Below, piece by piece: positions 455 through 62,516 of a DNA stretch of 64,000 nucleotides; positions within the stretch are counted from its first letter, which is position 1, and each line of letters starts with the position of its first letter. The notes below the pieces were generated by a model, which was given only the letters and a program-made list of their open reading frames with translations, had not been told where the DNA came from and made no database searches. This DNA is from a virus. Lineage: Duplodnaviria; Heunggongvirae; Uroviricota; Caudoviricetes. The stretch lies in the IMG/VR virus record IMGVR_UViG_2585427593_000001, positions 56,832-120,831 of that record; one strand, given 5' to 3'. Made by a program: the position numbers and the translations under genes.

Positions 455-1030
455 ATGTCAAAGCAAACGACAAGCGTCAAAGGCCGTTTGTCGACGAGGA
501 AAACTATGTCCGTTTATCCGATCAAGGTCCACTCGATCTCGCTCGATCATCGAGGTGGGACCAAGTCCTATCACCTGATGATGATCCAGGCCGCGAACGG
601 CAACTCGGTCGTCGTCTATCGCTGGGGCAAGACCGGCGTGTTCGGCGAAACCAAGATCGAGACCTATGACAGTCCGGTCAAGGCGCAGAAGGGCTGGGAC
701 AAGAAGGAACGCGAGAAGACCAACAACGGCTACTCGCAGACCGGCCCCGTCGTCGAGAAGACTGCCAACGACGCGAGCGAGCTTATGGCCGCGATCGGTC
801 GCAATATGTTTGCGAAGCTCGGCGCTTCGAACGTCAAGCACCTCGATCCTTCCTTCGATACCAGCGGCATGCGCGAAGCCGACGATCCTCAGTATGACGA
901 GGAAACCGGCCGGAAGCTCGATACCGCCCGGAAGATGGACCTCGCCGCACTGCTCGAGGAGCAGAAGCGCAAGGAAGAGGCCGAAATCGCCGCAAACTAC
1001 GAAGTCAACGAACTCTACGGGAGGTTCTAA
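455..1030 (+). CDS. WGR-domain protein
   Basis: VVVYRWGKTGVFGETKIETY...KGY fits the WGR domain signature (W-G-R/K-x-G). The codon usage is phage-typical. Confidence 0.55.
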   Translation: MSKQTTSVKGRLSTRKTMSVYPIKVHSISLDHRGGTKSYHLMMIQAANGNSVVVYRWGKTGVFGETKIETYDSPVKAQKGWDKKEREKTNNGYSQTGPVVEKTANDASELMAAIGRNMFAKLGASNVKHLDPSFDTSGMREADDPQYDEETGRKLDTARKMDLAALLEEQKRKEEAEIAANYEVNELYGRF

Positions 1031-1587
1031 TGTCGCGCCATTACCTGACGCTGGACAACGATAACCAGTTCCAGTTCGCTTGCCCGATCTTCAACGTCAC
1101 CACCAAGATGAGCCTGTGCATGAAGCTGCGCGAGCTGGTCTGGATGGGCAAGCGCCCGGACGTTCGCAAGGGCTGCCAGGCGTGCATGTCGGCCGGCAAG
1201 TGCCCGGCTGCCGCAATCGTCTCGAAGATCTCCTATGGGCGCGATGTGCCCGATGAATACGGCTCCAAGACGCCGATCGTCGGCAAGCTTCGTCGCGACA
1301 TTCTGGAGCGCGTCCACCGCCCGATGGTGCTCGAGAAGACGCTCAACGATTTCAGCGTCCCGCCTGCCGAGCGCGACCTCATCGCCGGCGCTTCCGAGCG
1401 TATCGGCAAGATGATCGGCGCAGCACCGCTGCCGTCCACCGACGGCCCGCCGAGCCGCTCTGCCTTCGATACCGAGACGGCCGCTCCCAAGCAGCCGCGC
1501 AAGGCAAGGCCGAAGGCCGACAATTCCAACAAGGTCAACGAGGCAGCCAGGACCGGCGACCTCGCGGCCGCAATCAATGCAGCATAA
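1030..1587 (+). CDS. hypothetical protein with a C-terminal TGDLAAAINAA motif
   Basis: The ORF overlaps the upstream stop by ATGA. The C-terminal motif is shared with two other proteins in the window. Confidence 0.5.
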   Translation: MSRHYLTLDNDNQFQFACPIFNVTTKMSLCMKLRELVWMGKRPDVRKGCQACMSAGKCPAAAIVSKISYGRDVPDEYGSKTPIVGKLRRDILERVHRPMVLEKTLNDFSVPPAERDLIAGASERIGKMIGAAPLPSTDGPPSRSAFDTETAAPKQPRKARPKADNSNKVNEAARTGDLAAAINAA

Positions 1588-1599
1588 GGAGAGGTATTC

Positions 1600-3129
1600 A
1601 TGGACGCATATGGAGTTGCGCGTCTGATCGAGGACATCGCGTCCACGTCGTCGCGCACGGAGAAAGAGCGCCTTACGAAGACGCTTGCCGAGTCCGATAT
1701 CGGCAAGTTCATTCTGACTTGGGCCTACAACCCGTTCATCACCTTCGGCATCACGCCGGCCATTTCCGATAATGCCGGCAAGCTCGCCTTCGAGTTCAAG
1801 CCTAGCCTCGTCGAGCCGCTTCTGCAGCAGCTTTCGAGCCGCGAGCTCACCGGCATGGCAGCCGAGCGCGAAATCGGCGAGGTGATGGCAGCGCTTAACG
1901 AAGACGGGCAGCGCCTGCTCTTCCTGATCCTGTCCAAGGATCTGAAGTGCGGCATTGCCGTGAACACCATCAACCAGGCTATGCCCGGCCTGATCCCGGT
2001 CTTCTCCGTCCAGCGCGCCGTCGCCTACGAGGCGAAACGCATGACGAAGGTCATGAAGGCCGAGTTCAAGCTCGACGGAAACCGCAACTCCTTCCTGTCG
2101 AAGGATGGAAATGGCGGGTTCTTCACGCGCACGGGCAATCGCGTCGCGCCGCTCGACTTCCTGGTGCCGCACGTCATGAAGGCTGCAGCCTACGCCGCCC
2201 AGAAGGGCAGCGATGCGTTGAAGAAGGTTCTGATCGGCGATCGCATCGGCAGTATGTCGAGCCTCAACTTCATGCTCGACGGCGAAGCCATGATGACGCT
2301 GTTTGAGGAGACCGGCGCATTCCGGCGCAAGGACGAAGACGCTCTCGGCGCCGAGCTCCATCTCTACGACATGATGCCCTTGGAGCATTTCGACGCGCCT
2401 GGCGCCGTCGGAGAGCCGCTCAAGGTCCGTCGTCAGTGGGTCGCGGAGTTCGTCAAGCTCGCCAAGGAGGCTCTTACCGGCACTGCAGGCGCCGAAGCCG
2501 TTCAGCTCGTGCCGCAGTTCTTCGTCAACAACGACTCCGAGGTTCAGGCGCTGTTTGAGCGCGCCCGCTCGATGACGCTCGCCAAGTATCTCGCCCGCGG
2601 CAATGCCGAGCGCGAGAAGGAGCTGCTCGCCAAGACGATCGACAAGGCGACCGGCCAGCCGAAGGTTCTCGAAGGTATCGTGGTCAAGGACGACGATGCC
2701 CTCTACGAGAAGAAGAAGTCCGCGGCCTGGCAGAAGCTCAAGGCGGAAGAGACGCTCGATCTGCCGATCGTCGGTGTCTACAACGGCCAGGAGCATTCCA
2801 AGTATGAAAACATCCTGGGCGGCGTCATCGTCGACCATAAGGGTGTCGAGGTGCGCGTCGGAGGAGGGATCTCCGATGAGGATCGTGCCTATCTCTGGAC
2901 TCTCTGGGAGAAGGACGCGGCAATCATCGGTGTTGCTCCGAAGGTAGGCTTCAAGGGCGCGACCTTTGAATACGACACGCTCAAGCGGCTCGGGGCGACC
3001 AATCTCCTCACCCGGCTTCTCGAAACCGAGTTCATGGAAGTGACGCCCGACGGATCGCTCCGTCACCCGCGGGCAATTCGCTTCCGTGACGACAAGGACG
3101 GCGAAGTCGAATCCAGGGAAGCGGCGTGA
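1600..3129 (+). CDS. ATP-dependent DNA ligase
   Basis: Adenylation motif I KxDGxR is present (EFKLDGNR), with ligase-like N-terminal and OB-like C-terminal regions. Confidence 0.8.
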   Translation: MDAYGVARLIEDIASTSSRTEKERLTKTLAESDIGKFILTWAYNPFITFGITPAISDNAGKLAFEFKPSLVEPLLQQLSSRELTGMAAEREIGEVMAALNEDGQRLLFLILSKDLKCGIAVNTINQAMPGLIPVFSVQRAVAYEAKRMTKVMKAEFKLDGNRNSFLSKDGNGGFFTRTGNRVAPLDFLVPHVMKAAAYAAQKGSDALKKVLIGDRIGSMSSLNFMLDGEAMMTLFEETGAFRRKDEDALGAELHLYDMMPLEHFDAPGAVGEPLKVRRQWVAEFVKLAKEALTGTAGAEAVQLVPQFFVNNDSEVQALFERARSMTLAKYLARGNAEREKELLAKTIDKATGQPKVLEGIVVKDDDALYEKKKSAAWQKLKAEETLDLPIVGVYNGQEHSKYENILGGVIVDHKGVEVRVGGGISDEDRAYLWTLWEKDAAIIGVAPKVGFKGATFEYDTLKRLGATNLLTRLLETEFMEVTPDGSLRHPRAIRFRDDKDGEVESREAA

Positions 3130-3693: not shown

Positions 3694-4854
3694 TTACCGA
3701 TGCGGGAGTTTCATCTTCAAGATTTCCTTCGTGAGGTCGAGCTGGCCTGCTTTGATCAATCGAATCATCGCTCTGAAATAGCCGCCCGCGTTCTTGATCG
3801 GATCAGATCCTGGCGCGGGCCGCGTTTGCATCTGGACCACGTAAACCAGCGTGGCTGAAGCCCCGAGCGCCCCGATTTCACGGGTTGCCTCCTCCCAGCC
3901 CGACGCTGAGACCCCAAAAGCGCCCCTCATGCGCGACACGCCCATAATTAGGTCGCGGTCGCTGCGCACATCGCCTATAAACTCCATCGCATCAGGGCAG
4001 GCTCTCGCCAAATCGCCGGCATTTAGGCTCATGCCCGGCCGTTCCGGCTCCCTCACATCATCAATGCCGTTGTTACAAGACTGGTCAGGGGCATATTTGT
4101 TGTTGTCTTTGTGACGGCAAGAATTGCCGGCAGAGGCGGCATAATATTTACCTTCTGCTTCCTCCCTGATCGAGCGCCATGCATCCCGGGCGTCGTCGGC
4201 CGATCCCGCTCCGGACCTGCGTGGTGTGATCCTAGCGAGCTCAAGCGCGCGGGCCGTCAGTTCGCTAATGTCGATGCTCGGGAAAGTCTCTGCAAGCGTT
4301 CTGAGAGCCTCCTGCGCTGATCTTCGATGAATGGTGAGCTCGTCAAAGGCAGCAGCTCGCTCTCGCTCCACGTCTTTGATCGCCTGGAGCTGATCGCGAA
4401 GCTCCGGCAGGCGCGCGAGGAGGGGCGAGAGGTCAAAGCCATACGCCTTGACGATCTGACCCCGCAGAGATCGCTGCGCGAACCGTTTGCCGTTCGGACT
4501 ATCCTTGGCGCCAATCACACCGTCGGCGAGCAGACGGGCAAGCGCATAGCGAACGGATCGCTCTGGAATACCGGTGCGCTCGACCAGGAATTCGTTCGAC
4601 GGCCAGACGAGCATCCGATTTTCGATCAGCTCTCCACCGTAGACGCCGACGAGCTGGTCGAGGACGAACCTGCAGCTTGACGGTAGTTTCAGCACGCGGG
4701 CAGCCACCCGCGCTGCCTCGTAGAGGACTTGTTTGTCCGCTGTGTCTGGCTCTGCGGCCGACGGTGGTGTCGGCTTTAGAGCGCGCCAGCCGGACGACTG
4801 TGCGCTTCTCATGGTTATCCCTTTCACAGGGCAACGCTTCGCCGTTCGCCTCAA
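3694..4854 (-). CDS. repC: RepC-like replication initiator protein
   Basis: KDSPNGKRFA, FGFDLSPLLARLPEL and C-terminal AGGYFRAMIRLIKAGQ match conserved blocks of repABC-replicon RepC. It lies on the minus strand in a low-GC island. Confidence 0.8.
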   Translation of the reverse strand: MRRTAKRCPVKGITMRSAQSSGWRALKPTPPSAAEPDTADKQVLYEAARVAARVLKLPSSCRFVLDQLVGVYGGELIENRMLVWPSNEFLVERTGIPERSVRYALARLLADGVIGAKDSPNGKRFAQRSLRGQIVKAYGFDLSPLLARLPELRDQLQAIKDVERERAAAFDELTIHRRSAQEALRTLAETFPSIDISELTARALELARITPRRSGAGSADDARDAWRSIREEAEGKYYAASAGNSCRHKDNNKYAPDQSCNNGIDDVREPERPGMSLNAGDLARACPDAMEFIGDVRSDRDLIMGVSRMRGAFGVSASGWEEATREIGALGASATLVYVVQMQTRPAPGSDPIKNAGGYFRAMIRLIKAGQLDLTKEILKMKLPHR

Positions 4855-9170: not shown

Positions 9171-10466
9171 ATGAGCCAGTTAGCAAACGCTGGTGCAGCT
9201 GCCACTGCACCGGACGATAAGATCTTGTGCCAGATCGACAACGTGCGCGTCCACTCGATCCAGAGCCACATCAAGAAGACCCATCCCGATTGGACGATCG
9301 AACGCTACCAGGCCGAGTTCCCTGGCGAGCCGCTCTTTTCCCAGACCGCGCTTGATGTCATCGAGCGCCAGAAGAAGGAAAAGGAGCTGGCCGCAGCGGC
9401 TGCGCCCCAGGTCAATATGGCTGTCTCCGCAGGTATCGGGCCTGCCAAGATGAGCTTCAAGAACGCCATGTTCCACGAGCTGTTCGAACTCGGCAACGCG
9501 GCCGCTGCCATGTCGTCGAAGGGCCAGCCGATCCCGGTCAAGGTGCTCGACGGTCACGACGCGCAGTCGCTCGACTACCTGCCCGAGCTCGACAAGAGCT
9601 ACGTCTTCAATATCGACCTGCTCAAGAAGGTCATCATCGGCATGGAACTGAACATGCCGACCTACCTCTGGGGCTTCCACGGCACCGGCAAGACCACGAT
9701 CCTGCAGCAGGCAGCCGCCCGCACGCGCCGGCCGTTCATCCGCGTCCAGCACACGATCAACATGCAGGAGTCGGACGTTCTCGGCCAGTGGACCGTTCGC
9801 GCCAAGGAAGTCGAAGTCGAGGAGCTCGACAATGCCGGCAAGAAGGTCGTCGTCAAGAAGCAGCAGTCCGTCACCGAATACCAGCTCGGACCCCTGCCCC
9901 TCGCCATGATCAACGGCTGGGTCTACTGCGCCGACGAATACGACTTCGCCATGCCGTCGGTCACTGCCGTCTACCAGCCGGTTCTCGAAGGCCAGGCGCT
10001 GCTGATCAAGGACGCTCCTCCGCACTTCCGCAAGATCGTCCCGCATCCGAACTTCCGCTTCGTTGCGACCGGCAACACCAACGGCGTCGGCGACGAAACC
10101 GGCCTCTATCAAGGCACGCTCGTTCAGAACGCCGCAAACTATTCCCGCTTCGCGATCACCGAAGAGGTCGAATACATGGATGCGAAGATCGAGACCGCGA
10201 TCCTGCAGTCCAAGACCGGCATCGACAGCGCATCCGCTGGCAAGATCGTCAAGATGGCGAACGAAGTCCGCAAGATGTTCCGCGACGGCAAGATCACCAT
10301 GACGGTCTCGCCGCGTGAGCTGATCCGCTGCGCCTCGCTCGGTATTGCCTACGGTGGCAACTGGTCGCTCGGCATGGAGCTTGCCTTCGCCAACCGTCTG
10401 TCGCGTGTCGATAAGAAGGTTGTCCAGGAATACATGCAGCGCGTCTTCGGTGGAGCCGCTGCATAA
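9171..10466 (+). CDS. CobS/MoxR-like AAA+ ATPase
   Basis: Walker A GFHGTGKTT and Walker B-like VYCADEYD are present, and the vWA partner lies upstream. Confidence 0.8.
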   Translation: MSQLANAGAAATAPDDKILCQIDNVRVHSIQSHIKKTHPDWTIERYQAEFPGEPLFSQTALDVIERQKKEKELAAAAAPQVNMAVSAGIGPAKMSFKNAMFHELFELGNAAAAMSSKGQPIPVKVLDGHDAQSLDYLPELDKSYVFNIDLLKKVIIGMELNMPTYLWGFHGTGKTTILQQAAARTRRPFIRVQHTINMQESDVLGQWTVRAKEVEVEELDNAGKKVVVKKQQSVTEYQLGPLPLAMINGWVYCADEYDFAMPSVTAVYQPVLEGQALLIKDAPPHFRKIVPHPNFRFVATGNTNGVGDETGLYQGTLVQNAANYSRFAITEEVEYMDAKIETAILQSKTGIDSASAGKIVKMANEVRKMFRDGKITMTVSPRELIRCASLGIAYGGNWSLGMELAFANRLSRVDKKVVQEYMQRVFGGAAA

Positions 10467-11110
10467 TGGCAATCGTTCGCGATCCGAAGCTCGACAAGGC
10501 CCAGGTCAGGGCCTTCGCATCCAAGGTTCTCAGGCGCGTTCACGGGCTTGGGGCCAAGACGCAGACCATCGACGACATTGAAAGCGAGTTGTGGGTTGCC
10601 TGGTGCATCGCCTGCGACCGTTACAGTGCCGAAGGTGGTGCTGCGTTCTCGACCTACCTCTATTCCGGCATGCGCCGGCATATCAACCGGTGGATCGAGA
10701 AGAACTTCGAACGCTTCCACGAAGAGACCATCGCCGCATCCCTGGACGCCGAAGTCGAGCTCGACGGTCAGGAAGGTCGCGGTAGCCAGGTCGGGCAGCT
10801 CGTCGCCGATCCGAACATGAACCAGGACCAGGCGTATCAGCGCGAGAACTGCTTCGCCTATGCGCTGAGCCGTGTATCGCCGCGCGCCGGCCAGTTCTTG
10901 AAGTTCCTGAAGGACCATCCGCCCGAGCTGATCGAGCGCATGAAGGATCTCGAAGCCAAGGCCGCATATGCCAAGGAGCAAGGCGTCAACTACGCCATGC
11001 CCCACCGTCTCACCTCATCGATGATCCTCGACTTCATGGGCGCCAGCCGCGTCGAGCGAAAGCAGATCATGGATGAAGTTACCCAGATCGGGCAGCTGAT
11101 TTCGCAGTAG
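10466..11110 (+). CDS. phage sigma factor (sigma-70/ECF-like region 2)
   Basis: FSTYLYSGMRRHINRWIEKN resembles sigma-70 region 2.2-2.4. The 214-aa product overlaps the CobS stop by ATG/TAA. Confidence 0.6.
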   Translation: MAIVRDPKLDKAQVRAFASKVLRRVHGLGAKTQTIDDIESELWVAWCIACDRYSAEGGAAFSTYLYSGMRRHINRWIEKNFERFHEETIAASLDAEVELDGQEGRGSQVGQLVADPNMNQDQAYQRENCFAYALSRVSPRAGQFLKFLKDHPPELIERMKDLEAKAAYAKEQGVNYAMPHRLTSSMILDFMGASRVERKQIMDEVTQIGQLISQ

Positions 11111-11671: not shown

Positions 11672-14600
11672 ATGCATTCGGTTCTCGCAGCGCGGACTGA
11701 CTTCTCAGTCGGCGAAAGCATCCTCACGACCAAGCTTCTGATCAAGAACGCCGTCGATGTCGGTGCAAAGGCCGTCGCCATGACCGACACCATGTCGATC
11801 ACCGGCATGATCGATTTCACCAATAAGGCGAAGGCTGAAAAGCTGAAGCCGATCATCGGCGTGCGCCTGCGCCTGGTCGACAATCCGACCTGGCGTCCGG
11901 GCAAGGACGAAAAGAAGAAGGACATGCCGCGCGCCTACTTCCTGACGGCCTATGCGCGAACCGAGGCCGGCATGAAATCGATCTTCCGGATGCTGACGCT
12001 CGCAAACTCCGACGACCGCTTCTACTACGAGGCCAAGCTCGGCTTTTCGGATCTCTACGACGAGCTGAAGGCACTCTCGGGCAAGGATCTCGCCATCGTG
12101 CTCGGTGACGCCCATAGCGTTCTGGAGCATCCGCACGCCGACGGCATCGTGAGAACGATCAAGGACGAAGTGGAGCTTGTCTACGCTCCGCTGATCCCGA
12201 TCGACACGCCCTATTTCGGCCGCCTCAACGAGCTGGCGCTGGAAAAGATCGTGGACGTTGGCGTCCTGCCGATCGTCGTGCGTCCGGCCTTCTACGGCCA
12301 GGGCGAAGCTGACACGCAGGAGATCATGACGGCAATCTCCGAGAATCATAAGGTGACGGATGGCTGGTTCAGGTCGCGGCATAATCGCGACATGCATGTC
12401 ATGGGTGCGCCCGAGCTCGTCGGCGAAATGAAGAAGGCTGTCGCTCACCTGGTCAAGCGCGGCAATGAGCCGACGTTCGTTGCGGCGCAGTTTAAGAGGG
12501 GCCTCATCGCTACCGCTGAGCTGGTCGATGCCGTCGAATATGAATGGAAGAAGGCTGAGGTCTCGCTGCCCATCATGGCGCCGAACGAGTTCGCAGCCGT
12601 CGTCGAAGAGTGCAAGAAGGGCTGGAAGACGCGCTTCGACAAGCCGATCTTCGGGCATCAGCCCGACGCGAAGGAGCTGGTCGAGGTCTATAAGCCCCGC
12701 CTCGCCTATGAGCTTGAGACGCTGAAGCGCCTGAACTTCTCTGGCTATTTCCTGCTGGTGCAGGACGTGGTTCAGTTCGCGAAAACCAGCGGCATCATGG
12801 TTGGCCCTGGTCGTGGTTCCGTGGGCGGATCCCTCGTCGCGTATCTGATGGGCATTACCGAGTGCGATCCGATCCGCTTCGGCCTGCTCTTCGAGCGCTT
12901 CATCAACCCGGAACGTATCGACTTGCCCGACGCCGACCTCGACTTCATGTCCGAGCGCCGGCACGAGGTATTCGAATATCTGACCAAGAAGTATGGCGCG
13001 GCGCGTGTCGCCGGTGTCAACAACTATGGCACGCTCGGCTCTCCGTCGGCGATCCGCGATGTCGGCCGCGTCACCAATATTCCTGAAAAGGACTATTCCG
13101 TCTCGAAGTATGTGCCGAAGCTGCACGGTCAGAACGTGTCATTGCCCGAAGGTCGCAAGCAGGTCGCGGAGATCGACGCCTTCGCGCTGAACTATCCGAC
13201 CCACTGGTCGATCATGGAGCGCCTCGAAGGCACCATCCGCAACTTCGGCCAGCACGCAGGCGGCGTCATTGTCGGTGGGGTCGATATTGTCGATCGCGCC
13301 GTCGTCGAGCGCCGCAAGGATGGCAACGTCGTCTGCTGGGACAAGCGCATTGTCGAAGACCAGGGCCTGGTCAAGATGGACGTTCTCGGGCTCAACACGC
13401 TCGATCTGATGACGCTTGCGCTCGACTACATCCGCGAGAACTCCGGCAAGCGCCTCGACCTGAACCGCATTCCCCTCGATGACGAGAAGGTGCTGGCAAA
13501 CTTCGCCAAGGCGCACACGACCGCGATCTTCCAGTTTGAGTCAGGCGGTATGCGCCGGCTTCTGAAGGAGCTCGGCCGCGATGGCTCGATCACCTTCGAC
13601 GATATCACCGCGGCGACCGCGCTCTATCGTCCTGGTCCGATGGAGTCGGGCATGATGGACTCGTTCTACAAGCGCAAGCAGGGCGACGAGGAGATCGAAT
13701 ATGACCATCCGCTGATGGAGCCGGTGCTCGAGGAAACCTTCGGCGTCATCGTCTACCAGGAGCAGGTCATGAAGATCTCCCAGGTGATTGCCGGCTATTC
13801 GGGCGCTGCCGCTGACAAGCTTCGCAAGATCATGGGTAAGAAGCTGCCCGAGGAGATGAAGAAGGAGCGCAAGAAGTTCTGCGACGGCTGTGTCGCCACG
13901 ATCGGCTGCACCGAGGAATGGGCAGGCGCGCTGTTCGACAAGATCGAAGGCTTCGCCGGCTACGGCTTCAACAAGTCGCACTCGGTCGAATACACGCTGA
14001 TCTCCTACCAGGCGATGTATCTGAAGACCTACCACGCTGCCGAGTTCTACGCGGCCGCGCTGACGGTGCAGAAGGAAGAAAAGCTCACCGGTATTATCCG
14101 TGACGCAAGGATGCTCGGTATCGAGGTCTCGATGCCCGATATCAACATCTCGACCGACCGCTTCGAAATGGCGACCTCGGTGCGCCTGGTCATGCCGCTG
14201 CAGAGGATCAAGGGTCTGTCGGAGAAGGCAACCAATGCCATCCTCGAAGCCCGCAAGGCAGGTGGACCCTTTAAGGACAAGAACGACTTCCTGTCCCGCG
14301 TGGAAAAGCGCGTCTGCAATAAGCGCGTCCAGGAGGCTCTGGAGCTCGTCGGCGCGTTTGCGCGCATCGAGCCCGGATCTGTGCCGGCCAACGACCCGAG
14401 CCGCATCAAGGACCAGATCGAGCTGCTGCCGGGCCTCATCGCCAGCCACGTCCCGATCGACCACGAGCTCAACAAGGACAACGACACGAAGATTGCGCTT
14501 GGCGAGGTCGTTGACGACTACCGTCGCGCACACGGCCCGACCTCGGGCTCTGTCGACGGCTATCCGGTCAAGCCGTTCTTCGGCAGGAACGCCGACTTCA

Positions 14601-15040
14601 TGATTATCTCGGACGCGCCTGGCAACGAGGAAGACACGGGCGGCATCATGGGCTTCTCGATGTCGAATAACGCGGTTGTGGAAGCGATCGAAGCGGCAAG
14701 CCTCGACAGGTCGCACGCCTACTGGACCGCGCTCATCAAGCGTCCGAAGCGTGGCAAGCAGGTGGGTCCGGACGAGATCGCCATGTATTGGCCCTATCTC
14801 GAACGGGAGATCGACCTGCTCAAGCCGCCTATCATTGTGCTGCTCGGATCGCAGACCGTTCGCCACTTCATCCCGGACTTCAAGGGCAAGGCGTCCGACG
14901 CGGCCGGCAAGGTGATCTATTCGAAGAAGTATGACGCCAACATCGTGATCGGCTTCTCGCCTGGTGAAATCTACCACGACCCGGATAAGCAGCAGAACAT
15001 GAACGAGGTGTTCGGCGCCGTTGCGGATTGCCTGTCATGA
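11672..15040 (+). CDS. dnaE: DNA polymerase III alpha (DnaE-type) with a C-terminal family-4 UDG-like domain
   Basis: An N-terminal PHP domain is present. The DnaE signature GPGRGSVGGSLVAYLMGITECDPIRFGLLFERFINPERIDLPDADLDF is present. The C-terminal ~200 aa align to UDG4 (SDAPGNEED versus GEGPGEEED, and a GFSPGE substitution for the catalytic HPxY motif). Confidence 0.9.
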   Translation: MHSVLAARTDFSVGESILTTKLLIKNAVDVGAKAVAMTDTMSITGMIDFTNKAKAEKLKPIIGVRLRLVDNPTWRPGKDEKKKDMPRAYFLTAYARTEAGMKSIFRMLTLANSDDRFYYEAKLGFSDLYDELKALSGKDLAIVLGDAHSVLEHPHADGIVRTIKDEVELVYAPLIPIDTPYFGRLNELALEKIVDVGVLPIVVRPAFYGQGEADTQEIMTAISENHKVTDGWFRSRHNRDMHVMGAPELVGEMKKAVAHLVKRGNEPTFVAAQFKRGLIATAELVDAVEYEWKKAEVSLPIMAPNEFAAVVEECKKGWKTRFDKPIFGHQPDAKELVEVYKPRLAYELETLKRLNFSGYFLLVQDVVQFAKTSGIMVGPGRGSVGGSLVAYLMGITECDPIRFGLLFERFINPERIDLPDADLDFMSERRHEVFEYLTKKYGAARVAGVNNYGTLGSPSAIRDVGRVTNIPEKDYSVSKYVPKLHGQNVSLPEGRKQVAEIDAFALNYPTHWSIMERLEGTIRNFGQHAGGVIVGGVDIVDRAVVERRKDGNVVCWDKRIVEDQGLVKMDVLGLNTLDLMTLALDYIRENSGKRLDLNRIPLDDEKVLANFAKAHTTAIFQFESGGMRRLLKELGRDGSITFDDITAATALYRPGPMESGMMDSFYKRKQGDEEIEYDHPLMEPVLEETFGVIVYQEQVMKISQVIAGYSGAAADKLRKIMGKKLPEEMKKERKKFCDGCVATIGCTEEWAGALFDKIEGFAGYGFNKSHSVEYTLISYQAMYLKTYHAAEFYAAALTVQKEEKLTGIIRDARMLGIEVSMPDINISTDRFEMATSVRLVMPLQRIKGLSEKATNAILEARKAGGPFKDKNDFLSRVEKRVCNKRVQEALELVGAFARIEPGSVPANDPSRIKDQIELLPGLIASHVPIDHELNKDNDTKIALGEVVDDYRRAHGPTSGSVDGYPVKPFFGRNADFMIISDAPGNEEDTGGIMGFSMSNNAVVEAIEAASLDRSHAYWTALIKRPKRGKQVGPDEIAMYWPYLEREIDLLKPPIIVLLGSQTVRHFIPDFKGKASDAAGKVIYSKKYDANIVIGFSPGEIYHDPDKQQNMNEVFGAVADCLS

Positions 15041-15627: not shown

Positions 15628-15812
15628 TGGGTGAGGAAGACGCCTACGGGCTTCCGGTTCATACCGATCCAATCGATTACTTTGACCGCCCTCACCTACC
15701 TCCTCGAATGATCTTCAAGGATGGCAAGTGGCAGCAGGCGAACAAGCTCTCCTTCATGAATGAGGAGGAGCCGAATCCCTACGCTGAAAATCCTGCTTTC
15801 GGCGCTTTCTGA
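15627..15812 (+). CDS. hypothetical protein ending NPAFGAF
   Basis: Translationally coupled to the upstream ORF and ends in the same FGAF motif. Confidence 0.4.
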   Translation: MGEEDAYGLPVHTDPIDYFDRPHLPPRMIFKDGKWQQANKLSFMNEEEPNPYAENPAFGAF

Positions 15813-30013: not shown

Positions 30014-30015
30014 GA

Positions 30016-34445: not shown

Positions 34446-34532
34446 GGTCTGGTAGCGAAGCGGTTGAACGCGCAGGACTGCAAATCCTGTTCCGAAAGGG
34501 CGTCGCAGGTTCGAATCCTGCCCAGACCTCCA
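34446..34532 (+). tRNA. type-II (long variable arm) tRNA with anticodon GCA, U73 and encoded CCA
   Basis: Hand-folded cloverleaf: acceptor GGTCTGG/CCAGACC; D-loop AAGCGGTTGAA; anticodon arm CAGGA-CTGCAAA-TCCTG; 15-nt variable arm; T-arm GCAGG-TTCGAAT-CCTGC; discriminator T followed by CCA. Confidence 0.55.
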
Positions 34533-48613: not shown

Positions 48614-50065
48614 ATGAGCAAGAACATCATCCTGTCGACCGACAGCTACAAGCACAGCCACTTCATCCAGTATCCGCCCGGCGCCAAGTTCGTCTCCTCC
48701 TACATCGAGGCGCGCCGCGGCTCCGATAAGGATCAGATCCTGCAGTTCTTCGGGCTCCAGGCGTTCATCAAGGAATACCTGATGAAGCCGATCACCGATG
48801 ACACGATCCAGGAGGCCCATTCGATCCTCGAGGGTCACGGTCTGCCCTTCAACGAGAGCGACTGGCTGACGATCGCCGACGAGCATCGCGGTTTCCTGCC
48901 GATCGAGATCCAGGCGCTGCCGGAAAGCTCGGTCGTTCCGCGTGGTGTGCCGCTGGTCCAGGTGCGCAACACCGATCCGCGCTTCCCGTGGCTGACGAGC
49001 TTCATCGAGACGGCGCTGCTGCGCGCAATCTGGTATCCGTCTTCCGTCGCGACGCTTTCCTTCATCACGAAGGCGGTCATCTATGACGCGCTGCGCCGCA
49101 CGTCCGAAGATCCGGATGGGCAGGTGCTGTTCAAGCTGCACGACTTCGGCGCCCGCGGCGTTTCGTCCGGCGAGTCCGCTGGTATTGGTGGCGCCGCTCA
49201 CCTGCTGAACTTCCGCGGCAGCGATACGGTCGAGGCGCTCGCCTTCATCAATCGCTTCTACTACCCGAGCGGTGTGCCCGGCTTCTCGATCCCGGCGTCC
49301 GAGCATTCGACCATGACGAGCTGGGGCAAGGACCGTGAGGCCGATGCCTACCGGAACATGCTGAAGGAGTTCGGACACGGGCTCTTCTCGATCGTCTCCG
49401 ACAGCTACGACCTCTTCAACGCGGTCGACAACATCTTCGGCGACGAGCTGAGGAACGATATCCTCGCCCTCGAAGGCGCGCTGGTCGTTCGCCCGGATTC
49501 CGGTGATCCGATCGAGACCCCGATCGCTGTCGTCAAGAAGCTCTGGGATGCCTTCGGTGGCACGACCAACTCGAAGGGCTACAAGGTGCTCAACCCGAAG
49601 GTCCGCGTGATCCAGGGCGACGGCATGAACGGCTTGTCGATCGCGCGGCTTGTCACCCGCATGGTCGAGGAAGGCTTCTCGATCGACAACATCGCTTTCG
49701 GCATGGGCGGTGGGCTGCTGCAGGGCCACATGCGCGATGACATGCGCTTCGCCATGAAGGCCAATGCTATCGACTTCGGCAGCGGCTGGGTCGATGTCCA
49801 GAAGAAGCCGGCGACCGATCCCTTGAAGGCGTCGAAGGCTGGCAGGCAGGCCGTCATCTCCGACGCTTCCGGCAAGCTTATTGCGATCCGCGAGGATGCG
49901 CTGCCGCAGGACGGTCGCAACGAGCTGGAAGTCGTCTACAAGGACGGTCGCCAGTTCAACACCCTCTATTGGGAAGACCTGACGGCACACGCCCACATGC
50001 AGCTGGTGGACTTCTGCGACACCGTCATGAAGCGCACCGAGGAAGAGGAGGCAGCGGCTGCATAA
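48614..50065 (+). CDS. nadV: nicotinamide phosphoribosyltransferase (NAMPT/NadV)
   Basis: The N-terminal LSTDSYKHSHF block and NAPRTase-family blocks throughout the sequence. Confidence 0.85.
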   Translation: MSKNIILSTDSYKHSHFIQYPPGAKFVSSYIEARRGSDKDQILQFFGLQAFIKEYLMKPITDDTIQEAHSILEGHGLPFNESDWLTIADEHRGFLPIEIQALPESSVVPRGVPLVQVRNTDPRFPWLTSFIETALLRAIWYPSSVATLSFITKAVIYDALRRTSEDPDGQVLFKLHDFGARGVSSGESAGIGGAAHLLNFRGSDTVEALAFINRFYYPSGVPGFSIPASEHSTMTSWGKDREADAYRNMLKEFGHGLFSIVSDSYDLFNAVDNIFGDELRNDILALEGALVVRPDSGDPIETPIAVVKKLWDAFGGTTNSKGYKVLNPKVRVIQGDGMNGLSIARLVTRMVEEGFSIDNIAFGMGGGLLQGHMRDDMRFAMKANAIDFGSGWVDVQKKPATDPLKASKAGRQAVISDASGKLIAIREDALPQDGRNELEVVYKDGRQFNTLYWEDLTAHAHMQLVDFCDTVMKRTEEEEAAAA

Positions 50066-50285: not shown

Positions 50286-50398
50286 GGCAAAGGCAATCGG
50301 CGTCTGCGTCATCGCAATCATCATCGCAATGGGCGTCGTCAAGGCGCTCGAACTGCTCCGCAAGCGCGCGGGCAACTCTGAAGGAGAGAAGAAGTAAA
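50285..50398 (+). CDS. small membrane protein (37 aa)
   Basis: A single transmembrane helix, coupled to the neighbouring genes. Confidence 0.25.
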
Positions 50399-51252
50399 TG
50401 GGTAAGTTGGGATTGATCCTGGGCGGTATCATCGCCTTTTTCGTCGTGTGCCTCTTGGGAGGCTCGTTCTATACGGTCGACGAAGGCGAGCGCGCCGTTG
50501 TCGTCAGCCAGGGCAAGATTGCCTCGATCGCCGGACCTGGCTTCCATTGGAAGAAGCCGTTCCTGGATGACGCTCATATCATCAGCGTCCGCACCCAGGC
50601 CGTCGAGTTCCCGGAAGAGCCGGTTTACACCGCCGATCGCCAGACGGCGACCGTGACCTTCTCGGTCAACTACGCGGCAGTTCCGGCTGACGCGGAAGTG
50701 ACCACGCTCTATCGCGAATACCAGACGCTCGAAGGCTTCGAAAGCCGTGCGCTCAAGCGCCAGGTCCGCGAGCAGATCAAGAATGTCTTCGGCACGTTCA
50801 CCGCTGACACCGCGATCCGCGAACGTGGGCGCTTGAACAACGAGGTCGCAAAGGCGATCGCCAACCTCGGCGCCGGATTGGTCAAGGTCGAAGGTTTGAA
50901 CATCGAGAACATCAATTTCTCCGATGTTGTCGAAGCCGCGGCAGAGCAGCGTGCCCAGCAGGAAATGCTGGTCAATACGAAGGAGCAGCAGCGCCTGGTC
51001 GCCGTCAAGGAAGCAGCGATCGCCGTGACCCAGGCTCAGGCTCAGGCCGACAGCCAGCTCGCCGTCGCAAAGGCTAAGGCTGAAGCTGTTCGCTTGAACG
51101 GTGAAGCTGAAGCTGCGGCGATCAAGGCAAAGTCCGATGCTCTTGCTCAGTCACCGAACCTGGTCGAGCTGACGAAGGCCGAGCGCTGGGATGGTAAGTT
51201 GCCGACCCAGTTCGTTCCGGGCTCCGCAACGCCGTTCCTCAACATCAAGTAA
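50398..51252 (+). CDS. SPFH/band-7 (prohibitin/HflC-like) membrane protein
   Basis: An N-terminal transmembrane helix is followed by the SPFH core (FYTVDEGERAVVVSQGK). A terminator follows. Confidence 0.7.
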   Translation: MGKLGLILGGIIAFFVVCLLGGSFYTVDEGERAVVVSQGKIASIAGPGFHWKKPFLDDAHIISVRTQAVEFPEEPVYTADRQTATVTFSVNYAAVPADAEVTTLYREYQTLEGFESRALKRQVREQIKNVFGTFTADTAIRERGRLNNEVAKAIANLGAGLVKVEGLNIENINFSDVVEAAAEQRAQQEMLVNTKEQQRLVAVKEAAIAVTQAQAQADSQLAVAKAKAEAVRLNGEAEAAAIKAKSDALAQSPNLVELTKAERWDGKLPTQFVPGSATPFLNIK

Positions 51253-54572: not shown

Positions 54573-54887
54573 ATGATCCTGCCTATGCTCATGAATATCG
54601 CTCTCGGCGCCGGAAAGCTCGAGGTCGAGGCCGATGCTAAGAACTATCGCCTTGTCACGCGCGCCTTCGGCACGACGATCACGCTCGCCAAGCTGGACAA
54701 GGAAGCGGTCTATCAGCTGACCCGCACGCCGGACATGCCGGCAACGCGCGACGAGGCGGCCAAGGCATTCGAGAAGCACCAGAAGGATGAGGGCAAGGCG
54801 CTGGCCGACGATCCGGTTCCGCTGCCTACCCCGCGCCCTGAGCGCCGCAAGCCGCAGCTCTCGATCATTCAAGGCGGTGCGGCATGA
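54573..54887 (+). CDS. hypothetical protein
   Basis: A promoter and hairpin lie upstream. Confidence 0.45.
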   Translation: MILPMLMNIALGAGKLEVEADAKNYRLVTRAFGTTITLAKLDKEAVYQLTRTPDMPATRDEAAKAFEKHQKDEGKALADDPVPLPTPRPERRKPQLSIIQGGAA

Positions 54888-55558: not shown

Positions 55559-55780
55559 ATGCCGCCCGACAACATACTCGATCACTTCGCCAGGTGCGCG
55601 AGCTTGGATCAGGAATTCCCCGGCACAATCCTCAAGCGCTGGTTCGAAGGCTCTCACGGCCACTCGACGACGCAGGAGCTGATCATCAAAGCCGATGACG
55701 GCAATACCTATCGCGTAACGATGGATCGTGTCTCAGCCGACGCCGTCGAGGAAGTCCTGAAGGACTCTCATCCGTCATGA
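55559..55780 (+). CDS. hypothetical protein
   Basis: A promoter and hairpin lie upstream. Confidence 0.4.
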   Translation: MPPDNILDHFARCASLDQEFPGTILKRWFEGSHGHSTTQELIIKADDGNTYRVTMDRVSADAVEEVLKDSHPS

Positions 55781-56064
55781 AACGGCGGGTCAAGGTCGGC
55801 GATATCGAGGTCGGGGTCATGGATAACCCTAAGCCCGACCAAAACAATTGGATCGTCTACCGCTACCGGGCTCGAACCGACGAATACCTATCGAAGCAGG
55901 AAGCCCACAGCCAGACAAACGCGGAATACCTATTCACGCAGGTCGTCGGCCAGGAAGAGCTTCGACAGAAAAGGGCAGCAGCAGAGGCAGCTGTTGCCGA
56001 GAGCGACCCAGCGCTGGCTTTGCGCGGGCACTACCACGACCACCCTTTCTACGCGAGGTTCTGA
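55777..56064 (+). CDS. hypothetical protein
   Basis: ATGA coupling to the upstream ORF. Confidence 0.4.
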   Translation: MKRRVKVGDIEVGVMDNPKPDQNNWIVYRYRARTDEYLSKQEAHSQTNAEYLFTQVVGQEELRQKRAAAEAAVAESDPALALRGHYHDHPFYARF

Positions 56065-56358: not shown

Positions 56359-56910
56359 ATGGGATACTCAATGACCGGCGAGAACAAAATCCAGATGGCG
56401 AAGGCTTTTGCCGTCGGCGCACACGGCGCGGTTGAGCAGGTTCGAAAATATACCGGCGAGCCCTACATCGTTCACCCGGCAGCCGTTGCCGCGATCGTCG
56501 AGACGGTGCCGACCCATACCTGGCAGATGCTGTGCTGCGCCTGGCTGCACGACACCGTCGAAGATACCGGCGTGAGCCTCGAGATGATCAAGGAATTGTT
56601 CGGGCGCGAAGTCGAGCAGGGCGTGTGGCATCTGACGAACGTCGCCAAGGAAGCCGGCAACCGCGCAACCCGCTTCAAGCTCAACCTGGAGCGCCTGGCC
56701 GTTGCGCCCAATTGGGTCAAGACGGTGAAATGCGCCGACCTCTACGACAACACCGGCTCGATTGTGAAGCACGACCCGAAGTTCGCCTCGGTTTATCTCA
56801 AGGAGAAGGCAGAGACGCTCGAGATCCTGCGCGGTGCTGACCAGATTCTCTGGGATATGACCTACGAGCAGCTCGGCAATGCCGCGCTCAGCCTGGGTGA
56901 TGCTGCATGA
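56359..56910 (+). CDS. small HD-domain (p)ppGpp hydrolase (SpoT/Mesh1-like)
   Basis: YTGEPYIVHP...WLHDTVEDT...FGREV...HLTNV matches the RelA/SpoT HD hydrolase block. Confidence 0.75.
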   Translation: MGYSMTGENKIQMAKAFAVGAHGAVEQVRKYTGEPYIVHPAAVAAIVETVPTHTWQMLCCAWLHDTVEDTGVSLEMIKELFGREVEQGVWHLTNVAKEAGNRATRFKLNLERLAVAPNWVKTVKCADLYDNTGSIVKHDPKFASVYLKEKAETLEILRGADQILWDMTYEQLGNAALSLGDAA

Positions 56911-57449
56911 ACGGTCCCGTCAACATCTACGAAATCGAGACCCTGCCGGATGGGCATACCACCCTGCAGGTGATCTCCATCCGCGACACGCTGCAGGGCG
57001 AACAGTATTTCGTGCGCCTGGCCGATGGCGCCGACGACTACGAGGACACGCCTTTCGAGGACTATCCGCAAGCTTATGCCCACTATCGCAACACCTTGCG
57101 CACCCTCGGCATCAACGTGGCTTATTGCGCGCCGCAGGTCGAGTTTAGCTTTGCAGAGGAGAGCAAGAAGGCGAAGACCTGGGTCGATGTCTTCTACGAC
57201 TTCCACAGCCAACTGTCGTATTGCAAGGCCGGGACCGAGCAGGCGACGGCTGTGCGCGACAAGTTCATGGCCGATCCTGAGTTCAAGGAGTTTGCCGCGG
57301 AGATCTTGGCCGAGGCCGGTGAAAAGGTCGACTGGATCCACGCGATCATTCGCACCACCTGCAGGCGGGTGCTGGCGAAGGAGCAGGTCGAGGCGAAACG
57401 AATGATCGAGGAGCAGTTAGGGTCACTGTCCACGTTCGGGGCTTTCTAG
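56907..57449 (+). CDS. hypothetical protein ending LSTFGAF
   Basis: ATGA coupling to the upstream ORF. It carries the shared C-terminal FGAF motif. Confidence 0.5.
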   Translation: MNGPVNIYEIETLPDGHTTLQVISIRDTLQGEQYFVRLADGADDYEDTPFEDYPQAYAHYRNTLRTLGINVAYCAPQVEFSFAEESKKAKTWVDVFYDFHSQLSYCKAGTEQATAVRDKFMADPEFKEFAAEILAEAGEKVDWIHAIIRTTCRRVLAKEQVEAKRMIEEQLGSLSTFGAF

Positions 57450-57558: not shown

Positions 57559-57978
57559 ATGGTGAACGTGCCGAATATCGAGCGCGTTATCGCATCGATC
57601 AAGGGTGAGCTGCCTGAGACGCGCGATCTGGGTTTCAACATGGCTGCCTATGTCTACCAGGCAGGCCGCAATCTCCCCGACCATTCCGGGCGAAACCTCT
57701 CCTGGGTCGCCTGCGTCGGCGGGCATGCCTACATCCTGGATGTCGGCTGCACCTACGAGCAGGCAAAGCATGAAGATCCGAACGAGATCGAGGAAATCGC
57801 CCAGCAGTATCTCGGGCTGAGCGACGAGCAGGCGAACGCCCTCTTCTTCGACCTGCCCATCGGATTGACGCTGGAATGGATACCCGTTTCCCACGTCATC
57901 GAGGTTCTGGAGCGTCTGGCGCGCACCGGTGAAGTTCTCTGGTTTGAAGGCGAGAGCCACGTCGCCGAAGCTGCATAG
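57559..57978 (+). CDS. hypothetical protein
   Basis: A class-2 promoter lies upstream and the start has the CAGGAGG RBS. Confidence 0.45.
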   Translation: MVNVPNIERVIASIKGELPETRDLGFNMAAYVYQAGRNLPDHSGRNLSWVACVGGHAYILDVGCTYEQAKHEDPNEIEEIAQQYLGLSDEQANALFFDLPIGLTLEWIPVSHVIEVLERLARTGEVLWFEGESHVAEAA

Positions 57979-57987
57979 GAGGCAGTT

Positions 57988-60595: not shown

Positions 60596-60621
60596 AACAA
60601 TATAAGTAAGGATTTACTTAT
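60596..60621 (+). promoter_or_regulatory. hairpin element (TAAGTAAGGATTTACTTAT) with a weak TATAAG upstream of the tail fibre gene
   Basis: A variant of the family. Confidence 0.4.
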
Positions 60622-60668
60622 TATTTGGGCGAAGCTAGAATCGGGGTCTCTTAAACCGGACCTTTCTC

Positions 60669-62516
60669 ATGAAGATCTTCGCCAAGGGCACTATGCTCGG
60701 CAACCCGCTCCTGTCGAGCGAGGTTGTTATTCCTGTCTTCACTGCCCCGACGATGCCTCCCTCTTATACCCAGCGATCGGGCGCGGACGAGAAGTGGGGC
60801 TTCCTCGACTTCATGGTGACGGACGCCGGCGCTGCGGTTAACTCCCCTGTCGGCCGCGTCCTCGTGACCAACGCGCCCTCGCCCAACGCACTCTACATCA
60901 TGACCGGCGACACGGCCGGCCTGGCGATCGTGCCCGATACGGGCCTGATCTACGTGACCAATGGCTCGCTCCTGACGCCTAGCATTCGCACGATCACCGT
61001 CACCGCGGTCAACCTCGCCGGCAGCGCCAGCACGACGATCCGCATTGCGGTCGTGGGCACGGCCACCAACGTCATCTACATCGACCCGACGGCCGGCAAT
61101 GACGGCAACACCGGCACCAAGCCCACGCAGGCGATCAAGACCTGGGCGGCCCGCACCTCGAAGGGCTCGGGCACCAAGACCTATGCCATTCGCCGCGGCA
61201 CCGTGCTCGACGCTGCAATGGTGCTCGCAAACAACGAGACCGTCCGTTGTTATGGCGACCCCGCCCTGCCGGCGCCGAAGGTCATCACGACCACGGCGTT
61301 TGGTCTCTCCGGCACCGATCTCGCCGGCGCAACCGTCCAGGACGTGGATATCTCGGGCGGACAGCGCGCCGTCAACATCAGCCGCGGCACCAATTTCAAG
61401 GCGCTCCGCTGCGTGTTCCGGACGCCGACCGATGGCACCAACCGTCAGCCCTTCTATACCTCCCAGCTCACGGGCCTGGTGTTCCGGCACAATTGGGTGC
61501 CGGCCAATTCCTATGGCGACAACGTCTATTGCCGCGGGTTGAAGAACGCAGAGCTCGCCTACAATCTGCTGGAAACGCCGCTCGGCAGCACGGCCGACAA
61601 TATGCAGATCACCTCTGAGCGCAACGTCCTCTACCCGTGCGCCGATGTCTGGATCCATCACAACACTATGGTCAACGTGGGCGGCACCTCGTCCAAGGGC
61701 AACTGCGTCATCGAGGGATGTGTGCGGGCGCTGGTCGAGAACAACGACTTCAGCGGGCTCTATTTCTGCATGTCCTCGGTCGCAACCTTCAACACCATCC
61801 GCAATAACCGGATGAGCAAGGCGACCTACAGCTCCAACTCCTTCACTATGGGCATCGGCTCGGCCTACGACACCGGTGAGCAGTCCTGGTATGACAATCG
61901 CCTGTCCAGTCCGGGCAACCGCGCTTTCTCGATCTCCGGCACCGGTGAGGCTTCAGGTGCTCCGCTCTGGTCCCGCTACGACTTGGAGATCAACGACAAC
62001 ATCGGCGAAGGCCATACGACCTTCTTCCATCAGAACCGCCTGATGTCCGGCTATTTCCAGTATAACGTCGGGCAGAACAACGTCTCCAATACGGTCTCTG
62101 GCGTCACGACGGTAGCGACGGGCGGCGATTACACGACCCGCACGGTCACGCCGAACTTCCTCAATGCCGGTCAGGGTCCGGTCTGTCTCGAGAAGGCTCG
62201 GATCACGGGCCTGGTCCAGGAAGGGCAGACGGTTACGGTCAGCGAGCCCGTATTCGCCGACGCCGTGTCGCTGCAGTATCAGTGGCGCCTGAACGGTAAG
62301 TATATCGCCGGCGCCACGGGCCAGAGCTTCTCGATCCCGGCAGGTTACGGCAGTCAGATCTCCGATCGCGTTCCGACCTTTGTCACGACCGGCTTTCCTG
62401 GCGGGGCGGCCGGCGAGCTGTCGTGCATCACCCGTGGCGTCGACGTTGCAGGCAACGTGATGATCGCCCCTGCCCTGTTTACCAACGACGAAGCCTATAT
62501 GCCGATCGCTGCATAA
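60669..62516 (+). CDS. tail fibre/tailspike with a right-handed beta-helix (pectate-lyase-like) domain
   Basis: The N-terminus is T/G/A-rich. It has repeated N-rich beta-helix rungs (NNDFSG, IRNNRMS, INDNIG). A promoter and hairpin lie upstream. Confidence 0.6.
   Translation: MKIFAKGTMLGNPLLSSEVVIPVFTAPTMPPSYTQRSGADEKWGFLDFMVTDAGAAVNSPVGRVLVTNAPSPNALYIMTGDTAGLAIVPDTGLIYVTNGSLLTPSIRTITVTAVNLAGSASTTIRIAVVGTATNVIYIDPTAGNDGNTGTKPTQAIKTWAARTSKGSGTKTYAIRRGTVLDAAMVLANNETVRCYGDPALPAPKVITTTAFGLSGTDLAGATVQDVDISGGQRAVNISRGTNFKALRCVFRTPTDGTNRQPFYTSQLTGLVFRHNWVPANSYGDNVYCRGLKNAELAYNLLETPLGSTADNMQITSERNVLYPCADVWIHHNTMVNVGGTSSKGNCVIEGCVRALVENNDFSGLYFCMSSVATFNTIRNNRMSKATYSSNSFTMGIGSAYDTGEQSWYDNRLSSPGNRAFSISGTGEASGAPLWSRYDLEINDNIGEGHTTFFHQNRLMSGYFQYNVGQNNVSNTVSGVTTVATGGDYTTRTVTPNFLNAGQGPVCLEKARITGLVQEGQTVTVSEPVFADAVSLQYQWRLNGKYIAGATGQSFSIPAGYGSQISDRVPTFVTTGFPGGAAGELSCITRGVDVAGNVMIAPALFTNDEAYMPIAA

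Follow-up and report, generated by a model that had tools for sequence, protein, structure and literature searches.

Ala-Ala carboxy-termini as putative encoded recognition tails on non-structural proteins of a phage-plasmid lineage

A 64,000-nucleotide stretch of a Caudoviricetes genome (IMG/VR record IMGVR_UViG_2585427593_000001, positions 56,832 to 120,831; hereafter the window, GC ~59%) encodes a large excess of proteins that terminate in two alanines. The window is 92-94% identical to the Rhizobium phages B1VFA, V1VFA-S and RHph_X66 and ~70% identical to RHEph10 and the RHph_N1/Y2 phages, Pseudomonas phage nickie being a distant relative only. Genes were defined with a codon-usage-based caller written for this analysis, which recovered 150 of the 160 GenBank stops of B1VFA, and two sets were used, namely the union of called genes and genes mapped from the B1VFA GenBank entry (n = 82) and the genes supported by both sources (n = 66). 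Ala-Ala lay directly before the stop codon in 18 of the 82 genes of the union and in 18 of the 66 of the conservative set. At an Ala frequency of 10.7% and an internal Ala-Ala dipeptide frequency of 1.58%, about one such ending was expected, as the preliminary description of this DNA had estimated, and the binomial probability of the observed number was 8e-16; measured against the C-terminal Ala-Ala rate of Rhizobium replicons (3.2%) it was 1e-10.

Alanine was counted 22 times at position -1 and 29 times at -2, compared with 8-17 times at positions -3 to -12, and the terminal dipeptide was coupled, the residue before a final Ala being itself Ala in 18 of 21 cases; no gene in the window had Ala-Ala at N-terminal positions 2-3. 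All 18 genes previously listed as ending in Ala-Ala were confirmed as open reading frames (ORFs) with a strong coding signal. A nineteenth call, ORF 4327..4680 (+, ending EPAA), was a shadow ORF with a weak coding score of 16.7 and was dropped because it lies antisense inside the RepC gene (3694..4854, -). Ala-Ala is encoded within each ORF with all four Ala codons in use, and uncoupled genes show ordinary codon usage, which upholds the original placing of the bias at the protein level. Corrected gene ends, named at the outset as something that could remove the pattern, left it in place: 25 of the 160 coding sequences in the GenBank annotation of B1VFA end in Ala-Ala, as do 23 of the 159 called genes of RHEph10, and the agreement of this independent B1VFA annotation rules out a gene-calling artefact.

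Replicons of Rhizobium etli and R. leguminosarum carried Ala-Ala endings on 9 of 280 genes (3.2%; odds ratio 10 against these replicons, p = 3.5e-8). Other high-GC bacterial loci carried them on 10 of 375, a generic baseline only, having been collected with a Rhizobium ABC ATPase query and coming mostly from non-rhizobial bacteria. Among unrelated alphaproteobacterial phages (RHEph01, RHEph04, the T4-like RHph_Y68 and Ruegeria phage DSS3_VP1) the count was 3 of 257, and RHEph01 and RHEph04, despite a GC of 0.57-0.59 and ~10.8% Ala, had only 2 of 118-119; a scan of IMG/VR with the RHEph04 DNA polymerase, made for this background set, returned RHEph04 itself alone. Syntenic replication modules of gammaproteobacterial kin were similarly poor in Ala-Ala (nickie 0/55, an Aeromonas plasmid 2/61, an Acinetobacter plasmid 1/48; 3/164 together), the nickie module being comparably compact with a GC of 0.58 and 10.1% Ala. 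A betaproteobacterial relative from Cupriavidus was intermediate with 5 of 49, these being the protein in the ligase position, TrfA (LRAA), RecA, SbcC and MazG. The nickie, RHEph01 and RHEph04 controls exclude GC or Ala composition, the Rhizobium replicons and the high-GC loci exclude a property of the host proteome, and the unrelated phages exclude a trait general to phages of the same hosts, so the pattern belongs to one element lineage. An equal frequency in related phages or in host proteins had been put forward as grounds for rejecting it; related elements do share the frequency, host and unrelated same-host phages do not, and the sharing among relatives is best read, from these comparisons, as conservation under selection and not as trivial background. 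On the host side, the 1-50 kb segment of the R. leguminosarum Vaf-108 plasmid (locus L176) had 4 Ala-Ala endings among 46 genes and the other host-replicon chunks had 0-2 each; host Ala-Ala ends overall occurred at ~2 times the internal dipeptide rate, an excess that may reflect genuine host ClpXP clients.

Conservation was followed in 80 IMG/VR loci (DnaE +/-10 kb) pulled by alignment of three DnaE proteins, and nearly all of these relatives, to 44% DnaE identity, had 10-30% of their genes ending in Ala-Ala. Clustering of the 1,582 proteins from the loci showed that retention goes by family over more than 50 relatives, and separated high-rate families, namely DNA ligase (19/24, 79%), RecA-like recombinase (42/54, 78%), 5'-3' flap endonuclease (FEN; 41/57, 72%) and SbcC (6/13), from low-rate ones, namely DnaE (1/59), SSB (1/58), CobT (4/51), CobS (5/54) and sigma factor (6/55). 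Positional entropy was ~1 bit at -1 and -2 and 2.2-3.8 bits from -3 upstream; for RecA it was 1.15 bits at -1, 1.09 at -2 and 2.5-3.7 at -3 to -10. FEN tails vary accordingly in everything but their last two residues (PQALAA, IMQEAA, QEELAA, AAPAAA, PFGVAA, KIAKAA, TIRNAA). Among 118 full-length FEN homologues (49-95% identity) found by searching 5.8 billion proteins, 74 ended in Ala-Ala, often as LAA, with 0-12 variable residues between it and a conserved (V)FPxF(R/K) anchor, and most homologues lacking Ala-Ala terminate immediately past the anchor. Between the window and RHEph10, both members of 8 orthologous pairs end in Ala-Ala, 3 pairs do so in the window only and 5 in RHEph10 only, and proteins of the window and B1VFA that are ~95% identical differ in their ends by the switch of one residue (Val to Ala, Thr to Ala). 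This retention and turnover among orthologues, together with the variable linkers, is the signature of selection for a free Ala-Ala carboxy-terminus on an unconstrained tail. Ala-Ala has been lost on FEN and RecA in sublineages L104, L105 (GC 0.43), L101, L115, L139/L140 and L164/L165, with DnaE 46-65% identical to that of the window; FEN tails in the Ala-Ala-free sublineages include FPKFRR, FRQQSL and FEGVTS, L165 has no RecA call and the RecA of L164 ends AAE.

Among the genes for virion structure and packaging in B1VFA and RHEph10, 1 of 59 had Ala-Ala, against 47 of 260 in the remainder (Fisher p = 5e-4). The marked set comprises ligase, FEN, RecA, SbcC, the RuvC-like protein, exonuclease, ParA, helicase, nucleotide/NAD enzymes and small unknown proteins, of which ParA, a DEAD/DEAH helicase and several unknown proteins lie outside the window and end in Ala-Ala in both B1VFA and RHEph10. 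The preliminary description had spoken of a marked replication and recombination proteome; this holds for recombination and repair, and fails for the replisome (DnaE, SSB, DnaB-like helicase, primase and CobT), which is practically free of Ala-Ala. The window's DnaE (Pol III alpha, 11672..15040, +), taken as negative control, ends ADCLS.

All 18 Ala-Ala-ending genes of the window lie on the + strand. Those for DNA processing begin with an ATP-dependent DNA ligase (1600..3129, Pfam DNA_ligase_A_M) ending ESREAA, in whose family the residues upstream of Ala-Ala differ (ELKAAA, VLREAA, KEKFAA, NLKDAA), and include FEN (18099..19052, PQALAA; PF01367/PF02739 precomputed on homologues), the RecA-like recombinase (19072..20211, TSAEAA; Pfam RecA), an SbcC/SMC-like ATPase (23317..25254, ITEMAA; Pfam SMC_N and AAA_23) whose counterparts end EVAA in RHEph10 and RHAA in Cupriavidus, and a RuvC-like resolvase (26652..27242, PVAQAA; PHROG 159) with a QKAAA-ending orthologue in RHEph10. 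A DEDDh (RNase T-type) exonuclease (41177..41743, Pfam RNase_T) ends GVKLAA, and its RHEph10 orthologue bears IPAAA behind an unalignable tail; an RNA-ligase-domain protein (38679..39290, Pfam RNA_ligase) ends AASAAA, with AQAAA in B1VFA. In the CobS/MoxR-like AAA+ ATPase (9171..10466, FGGAAA; Pfam AAA_5 and CbbQ_C) the ending is lineage-restricted, in keeping with the low family rate given above, and RHEph10 ends RHFA. Enzymes of nucleotide and NAD metabolism are represented by a ThyX-like protein (30742..31692) with a weak Pfam Thy1 match slightly below cut-off, which ends GAFAA as in B1VFA, and by the nicotinamide phosphoribosyltransferase NadV (48614..50065, Pfam NAPRTase and NAMPT_N), whose tail EEEEAAAA is identical in B1VFA. 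An HD-domain (RelA/SpoT-type) hydrolase (56371..56910, Pfam HD_4) ends SLGDAA, and its orthologues in B1VFA and RHEph10 have no Ala-Ala end.

Two large proteins had to be relabelled. The 801-aa product of 34620..37025, ending ALKEAA, had been called GHKL, for which no Pfam match was found; its RHEph10 orthologue is annotated RIIA and ends HKEAA, and the B1VFA orthologue, at 34% identity, still ends KEAA, so we refer to it as rIIA-like. The 615-aa product of 60669..62516 (YMPIAA) had been called a tail fibre; it likewise has no Pfam match, lies outside the structural block and has a B1VFA orthologue ending PITA, and is treated here as a large hypothetical protein. The remaining marked proteins are small: a 185-aa hypothetical protein (1030..1587, AAAINAA) without Pfam or PHROG match, whose orthologues retain the ending (INAA in B1VFA, INAAA in RHEph10; family rate 5/10), an 87-aa protein (16526..16789, PTRKAA; family rate 8/17), a 104-aa hypothetical protein (54573..54887, IQGGAA; GGAV in B1VFA), a 139-aa hypothetical protein (57559..57978, HVAEAA) and a 120-aa hypothetical protein (43579..43941, WDEEAA), in which Ala-Ala is a recent gain or loss because the 98%-identical B1VFA orthologue ends DDADG.

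The element itself is a phage-plasmid of the RHEph10/pLM21S1/B1VFA lineage, given the plasmid replication initiator RepC in the window, the occurrence of its kin as plasmids and the literature on the lineage. RepC (Pfam RP-C 4e-38, RP-C_C 9e-14) was mapped from B1VFA, ends KLPHR and sits in a lower-GC stretch, where the codon-usage caller missed it; ParA and ParB are encoded in B1VFA and RHEph10, and phage structural and replication genes thus occur together with plasmid replication and partition genes. The closest DnaE to that of the window, 97% identical, is on the 119-kb Rhizobium beringeri plasmid NZ_CP140813.1, and kindred DnaE proteins are found on ~105-120 kb plasmids of MOB-suite type non-mobilizable in Sinorhizobium, Shinella, Pararhizobium, Methylobacterium, Cupriavidus, Acinetobacter and Aeromonas. 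Published accounts term B1VFA and V1VFA-S phage-plasmid-like and tie RHEph10 to the phage-plasmid pLM21S1; phage nickie and the Acinetobacter AB group are distant kin of these phage-plasmids (PMC7969092, PMC12509600).

To describe the tails themselves, residue preferences were computed on 212 distinct Ala-Ala tails. Glu occupies -3 in 28% of them (3.8x enriched), and this position is poor in Gly (0.1x), His (0x), Pro (0.3x), Arg (0.3x) and Thr (0.4x); the residues preferred at -4 are Lys, Arg and Glu. The FEN of the window, the one protein whose tail was modelled structurally, gave an AlphaFold model (52-sequence alignment) with a mean pLDDT (predicted local distance difference test) of 93.5, in which residues 309-317 formed coil and residues 314-317 (ALAA) fell below 50, so that a disordered, exposed tail is predicted. 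That ClpX reads a C-terminal Ala-Ala-COOH, as the preliminary description assumed, is established: recognition by ClpX depends chiefly on Ala-Ala-COO-, ClpXP has natural proteins with this ending among its substrates (PMC7652416), and in an E. coli ClpXP tag screen terminal Ala-Ala was necessary but not sufficient, Pro, His, Gly and small polar residues were poor at -3, and Leu at -3 and neutral or basic tails were favoured (PMC10862746). The depletion of Gly, His, Pro and Thr at -3 in our tails agrees with that screen, and the preference for Glu disagrees with it.

On balance we judge it somewhat more likely than not that the Ala-Ala-COOH ends are genome-encoded ssrA-like (C-motif-1) ClpX recognition tails that would make the marked proteins short-lived or subject to remodelling; both the reader, ClpX, and the outcome, proteolysis, are inferred. 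ClpX and ClpP are expected in Rhizobium. A host AAA+ unfoldase, most likely ClpX with ClpP, would engage the exposed Ala-Ala carboxy-terminus and degrade or remodel a defined non-structural subset, namely recombination, repair, nucleotide/NAD, partition and small unknown proteins. Short half-lives would clear leaky nucleases and recombinases during the plasmid-prophage state and let early and middle enzymes vanish after their transcription ceases, and virion proteins and the core replisome, having no tail, would persist. Such degrons would fit both the sparing of virion and replisome proteins and the plasmid-prophage lifestyle, because leaky nucleases and recombinases would be harmful there. 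The wider proposal, that a phage-plasmid family of alpha- and betaproteobacteria evolved a proteome-scale encoded Ala-Ala-COOH code handing its recombination, repair, partition and nucleotide-metabolism proteins, and not its replisome or virion proteins, to host ClpXP or to a lineage-specific AAA+ reader, as a timer or safety layer on the choice between lysis and plasmid lysogeny, we advance tentatively, as a conjecture with nearly even prospects.

Several observations weigh against ClpX degrons. The commonest residue at -3 is Glu and not the Leu preferred by E. coli ClpX, so many tails would be weak degrons or would suit a different reader. Tails are also missing from the syntenic Pseudomonas, Aeromonas and Acinetobacter relatives (3/164), whose hosts also have ClpXP, and from the unrelated phages of Rhizobium and other alphaproteobacteria (3/257); host ClpXP alone does not account for the restriction to one lineage, and a lineage-specific reader is therefore kept as a serious rival.

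On this alternative, which we consider rather unlikely, Ala-Ala-COOH would be a docking signal for a non-proteolytic, lineage-specific reader (a carboxylate-clamp domain, a hub protein or an AAA+ remodeller, encoded by the element or the host) that gathers or regulates the enzymes. It would suit a trait specific to the lineage and not general to the host, a coherent marked set of DNA-processing and deoxynucleotide (dNTP)/NAD enzymes, and a preferred [K/R/E]-E-A-A context that departs from the E. coli ClpX optimum, and the same genomes bear a second docking-like C-terminal motif, N-x-x-[FY]-G-[AR]-F-COOH. However, two conserved residues with free linkers are unusual for a docking peptide, and no candidate partner common to all Ala-Ala-rich genomes emerged: a profile that selected B1VFA genes shared with RHEph10 and Cupriavidus and detected in none of the three gammaproteobacterial DnaE regions gave only a sigma-70-family factor (10466..11110) and a 153-aa unknown protein (21283..21744), and is weak and uninformative because only partial genomes were covered.

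The second motif follows a charged helix on otherwise dissimilar proteins, encoded at 506..1030, 15037..15627, 15708..15812, 26190..26651, 56907..57449, 55777..56064 and 20279..20812, with the variants NELYGRF, NPTFGAF, NPAFGAF, NELFGAF, LSTFGAF, HPFYARF and EIYSLF. A [FYW]Gx[FWY] end occurs in 43 of the 1,582 family proteins, and the ends seen in relatives are GGWA in nickie, SW four times in Cupriavidus and WS/VW/AW in Acinetobacter. The motif looks like a docking peptide of the kind found in SSB or clamp-binding tails.

Less likely still, the tails could feed a protease other than ClpXP, such as an HslV-family peptidase, possibly with host HslU or the AAA ATPase at 63039, or act as decoys that saturate host ssrA/ClpXP; we regard this as improbable. 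Tails of the ssrA type can be recognised by several AAA+ proteases (PMC10862746), and B1VFA (locus L001, 45051-45560) and RHEph10 (gp093, locus L006, 1556-2008) encode a PHROG 1040 HslV-family peptidase (E = 1e-27 to 1e-33), for which a PDB sequence search gave only marginal proteasome-beta matches. The peptidase of B1VFA itself ends PVAA, and its Rhizobium plasmid homologues are labelled 'peptidase S14' by PGAP. Within the sensitivity of tblastn, however, it was not found in the Ala-Ala-bearing Methylobacterium or Cupriavidus plasmids and was seen in Rhizobiaceae plasmids and phages only, a restriction that leaves it unsupported as the common reader. The second candidate, a classic AAA ATPase (PF00004 and DUF7025; PHROG 29662, 'ATP-dependent protease'), starts at 63039 in the window and continues past its end at 64000 (B1VFA 28782-30563); its best named match, the anti-phage ATPase IteA, is weak and well under cut-off, and its absence from RHEph10 leaves it likewise unsupported as reader. 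An SPFH/Band-7 (prohibitin) protein (50398..51252), of a family that includes the FtsH modulators HflK and HflC, is 85-89% identical among the window, B1VFA and RHEph10. None of the three, peptidase, AAA ATPase or SPFH protein, tracks the Ala-Ala trait family-wide. Proteins with an Acb2/Tad1 hairpin domain (the anti-CBASS/anti-Thoeris sponge domain) adjoin the peptidase gene (B1VFA 44581-45054, RHEph10 1179-1559).

We also weighed whether the endings are a by-product of nucleotide constraints at gene ends, that is, of ATGA overlaps, of a Shine-Dalgarno-like GAGG in 'GAG GCN GCN stop' or of termination context, and find this very improbable. It would draw on the codon bias of the last Ala, which is GCA in 42% against 14% internally and in 11 of 19 window cases (5 of them ATGA overlaps), and on the rate of Ala-Ala itself, which in the IMG/VR set reaches 24% for genes whose stop overlaps the following start, compared with 12-13% in each of the remaining spacing classes (odds ratio 1.86, p = 7e-4). 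In addition, the codons for Lys or Arg at -4 and Glu at -3 can form AAGGAGG, as at the end of the rIIA-like gene 34620..37025 (cttAAGGAGGcagcATGA), and because AAG GAG GCN reads as a Shine-Dalgarno site, overlap constraints may add to the preference for these residues at the two positions. But the GCA excess in the window is due largely to ATGA stop/start overlaps and is gone among uncoupled genes in the larger sample, where the last codon of Ala-Ala genes is GCA in 17.5% against 14.3% internally, i.e. ordinary usage. The uncoupled rate of 12-13%, ~4-8 times background with ordinary Ala codons, largely rules out coupling, Shine-Dalgarno sites or termination context as the main cause. Moreover, structural genes with like overlaps reach only 1/59, the trait is family-specific, the nickie module has 0/55, and stop codons are used alike in Ala-Ala-ending and remaining genes. 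Overlap constraints modulate the pattern and do not create it.

Chance, compositional bias or miscalled genes, for which one could cite the single shadow ORF among 19 calls and an Ala-rich genome (10.7%), are so at odds with p ~1e-15, the concurring GenBank annotation and the 0-3% in controls of similar GC and Ala content that we give them practically no credence.

ClpX recognition tails of this sort would have several precedents. E. coli RecN ends LAA and Caulobacter CtrA ends Ala-Ala, both natural C-motif-1 ClpX degrons, and earlier papers on the degradation of RecN by ClpXP and on SOS-regulon instability are cited in PMC5442325. Phage and plasmid proteins handled by ClpX(P) include lambda O, MuA, the Mu repressor, P1 Phd and RK2 TrfA, and engineered tags (LAA, AAV, ASV, LVA, DAS) tune protein half-life. 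With the ssrA tag and C-motif-1 degrons our tails share the free Ala-Ala-COOH on a flexible tail that is critical there (PMC7652416), many FEN tails here being LAA, and the natural clients are typically DNA-repair and recombination proteins, as in the marked set. Unlike those cases, the tail here is encoded in ~18-25% of a mobile element's non-structural genes, is conserved family-wide and mostly has Glu at -3, and its degron role is putative. In tmRNA (ssrA) tagging the tag comes from the tmRNA template, and alanine tails made by RqcH, whose C-terminal Ala acts as a ClpXP degron (PMC7652416), are added untemplated after stalling, whereas here Ala-Ala lies in the gene as GCN GCN. Lambda O, MuA, the Mu repressor, Phd and TrfA resemble the present case as replication, transposition and maintenance proteins delivered to host ClpX, and the TrfA of the Cupriavidus relative ends LRAA; they are single proteins with diverse, often non-Ala-Ala signals, in contrast to a uniform two-residue code over dozens of families. 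Terminal and upstream variation in engineered tags tunes degradation (see PMC10862746), and the natural tails vary comparably at -3; if truly degrons, they would be the natural, evolved counterpart of such tags in a phage-plasmid.

ClpX handling of single phage and plasmid proteins is classical, and one two-residue code shared by dozens of families of a mobile element would be a new variation on it. The C-terminal pattern is not mentioned in the consulted portions of the lineage literature (PMC12509600, PMC7969092), and a full-text search on C-terminal Ala-Ala/ClpXP degrons in phages found no proteome-scale case in titles or abstracts. If the proposal is true, this would be the first virus to tag its own proteins systematically with a host quality-control degron, the mobile element using the host ssrA/ClpXP channel as a general regulator of its own enzymes. 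Degrons would then explain how a plasmid-prophage bearing nucleases, recombinase and ligase remains harmless and how early functions are shut off without dedicated regulators, would predict ClpX as a host factor governing infection and lysogeny in rhizobia, and would offer synthetic biology in alphaproteobacteria more than 200 graded natural Ala-Ala tails. Should a protein other than ClpX read the tails, the conserved two-residue code would point to an as yet unknown factor that binds C-termini. In both cases, statistics on C-terminal dipeptides become an inexpensive way to scan phage genomes for hidden post-translational regulation.

As to RNA genes, ARAGORN found no tmRNA in the window, only tRNA-Leu(CAG) (33709..33781) and tRNA-Cys(GCA) (34446..34532), which lie in a gene-poor stretch ahead of the rIIA-like gene.

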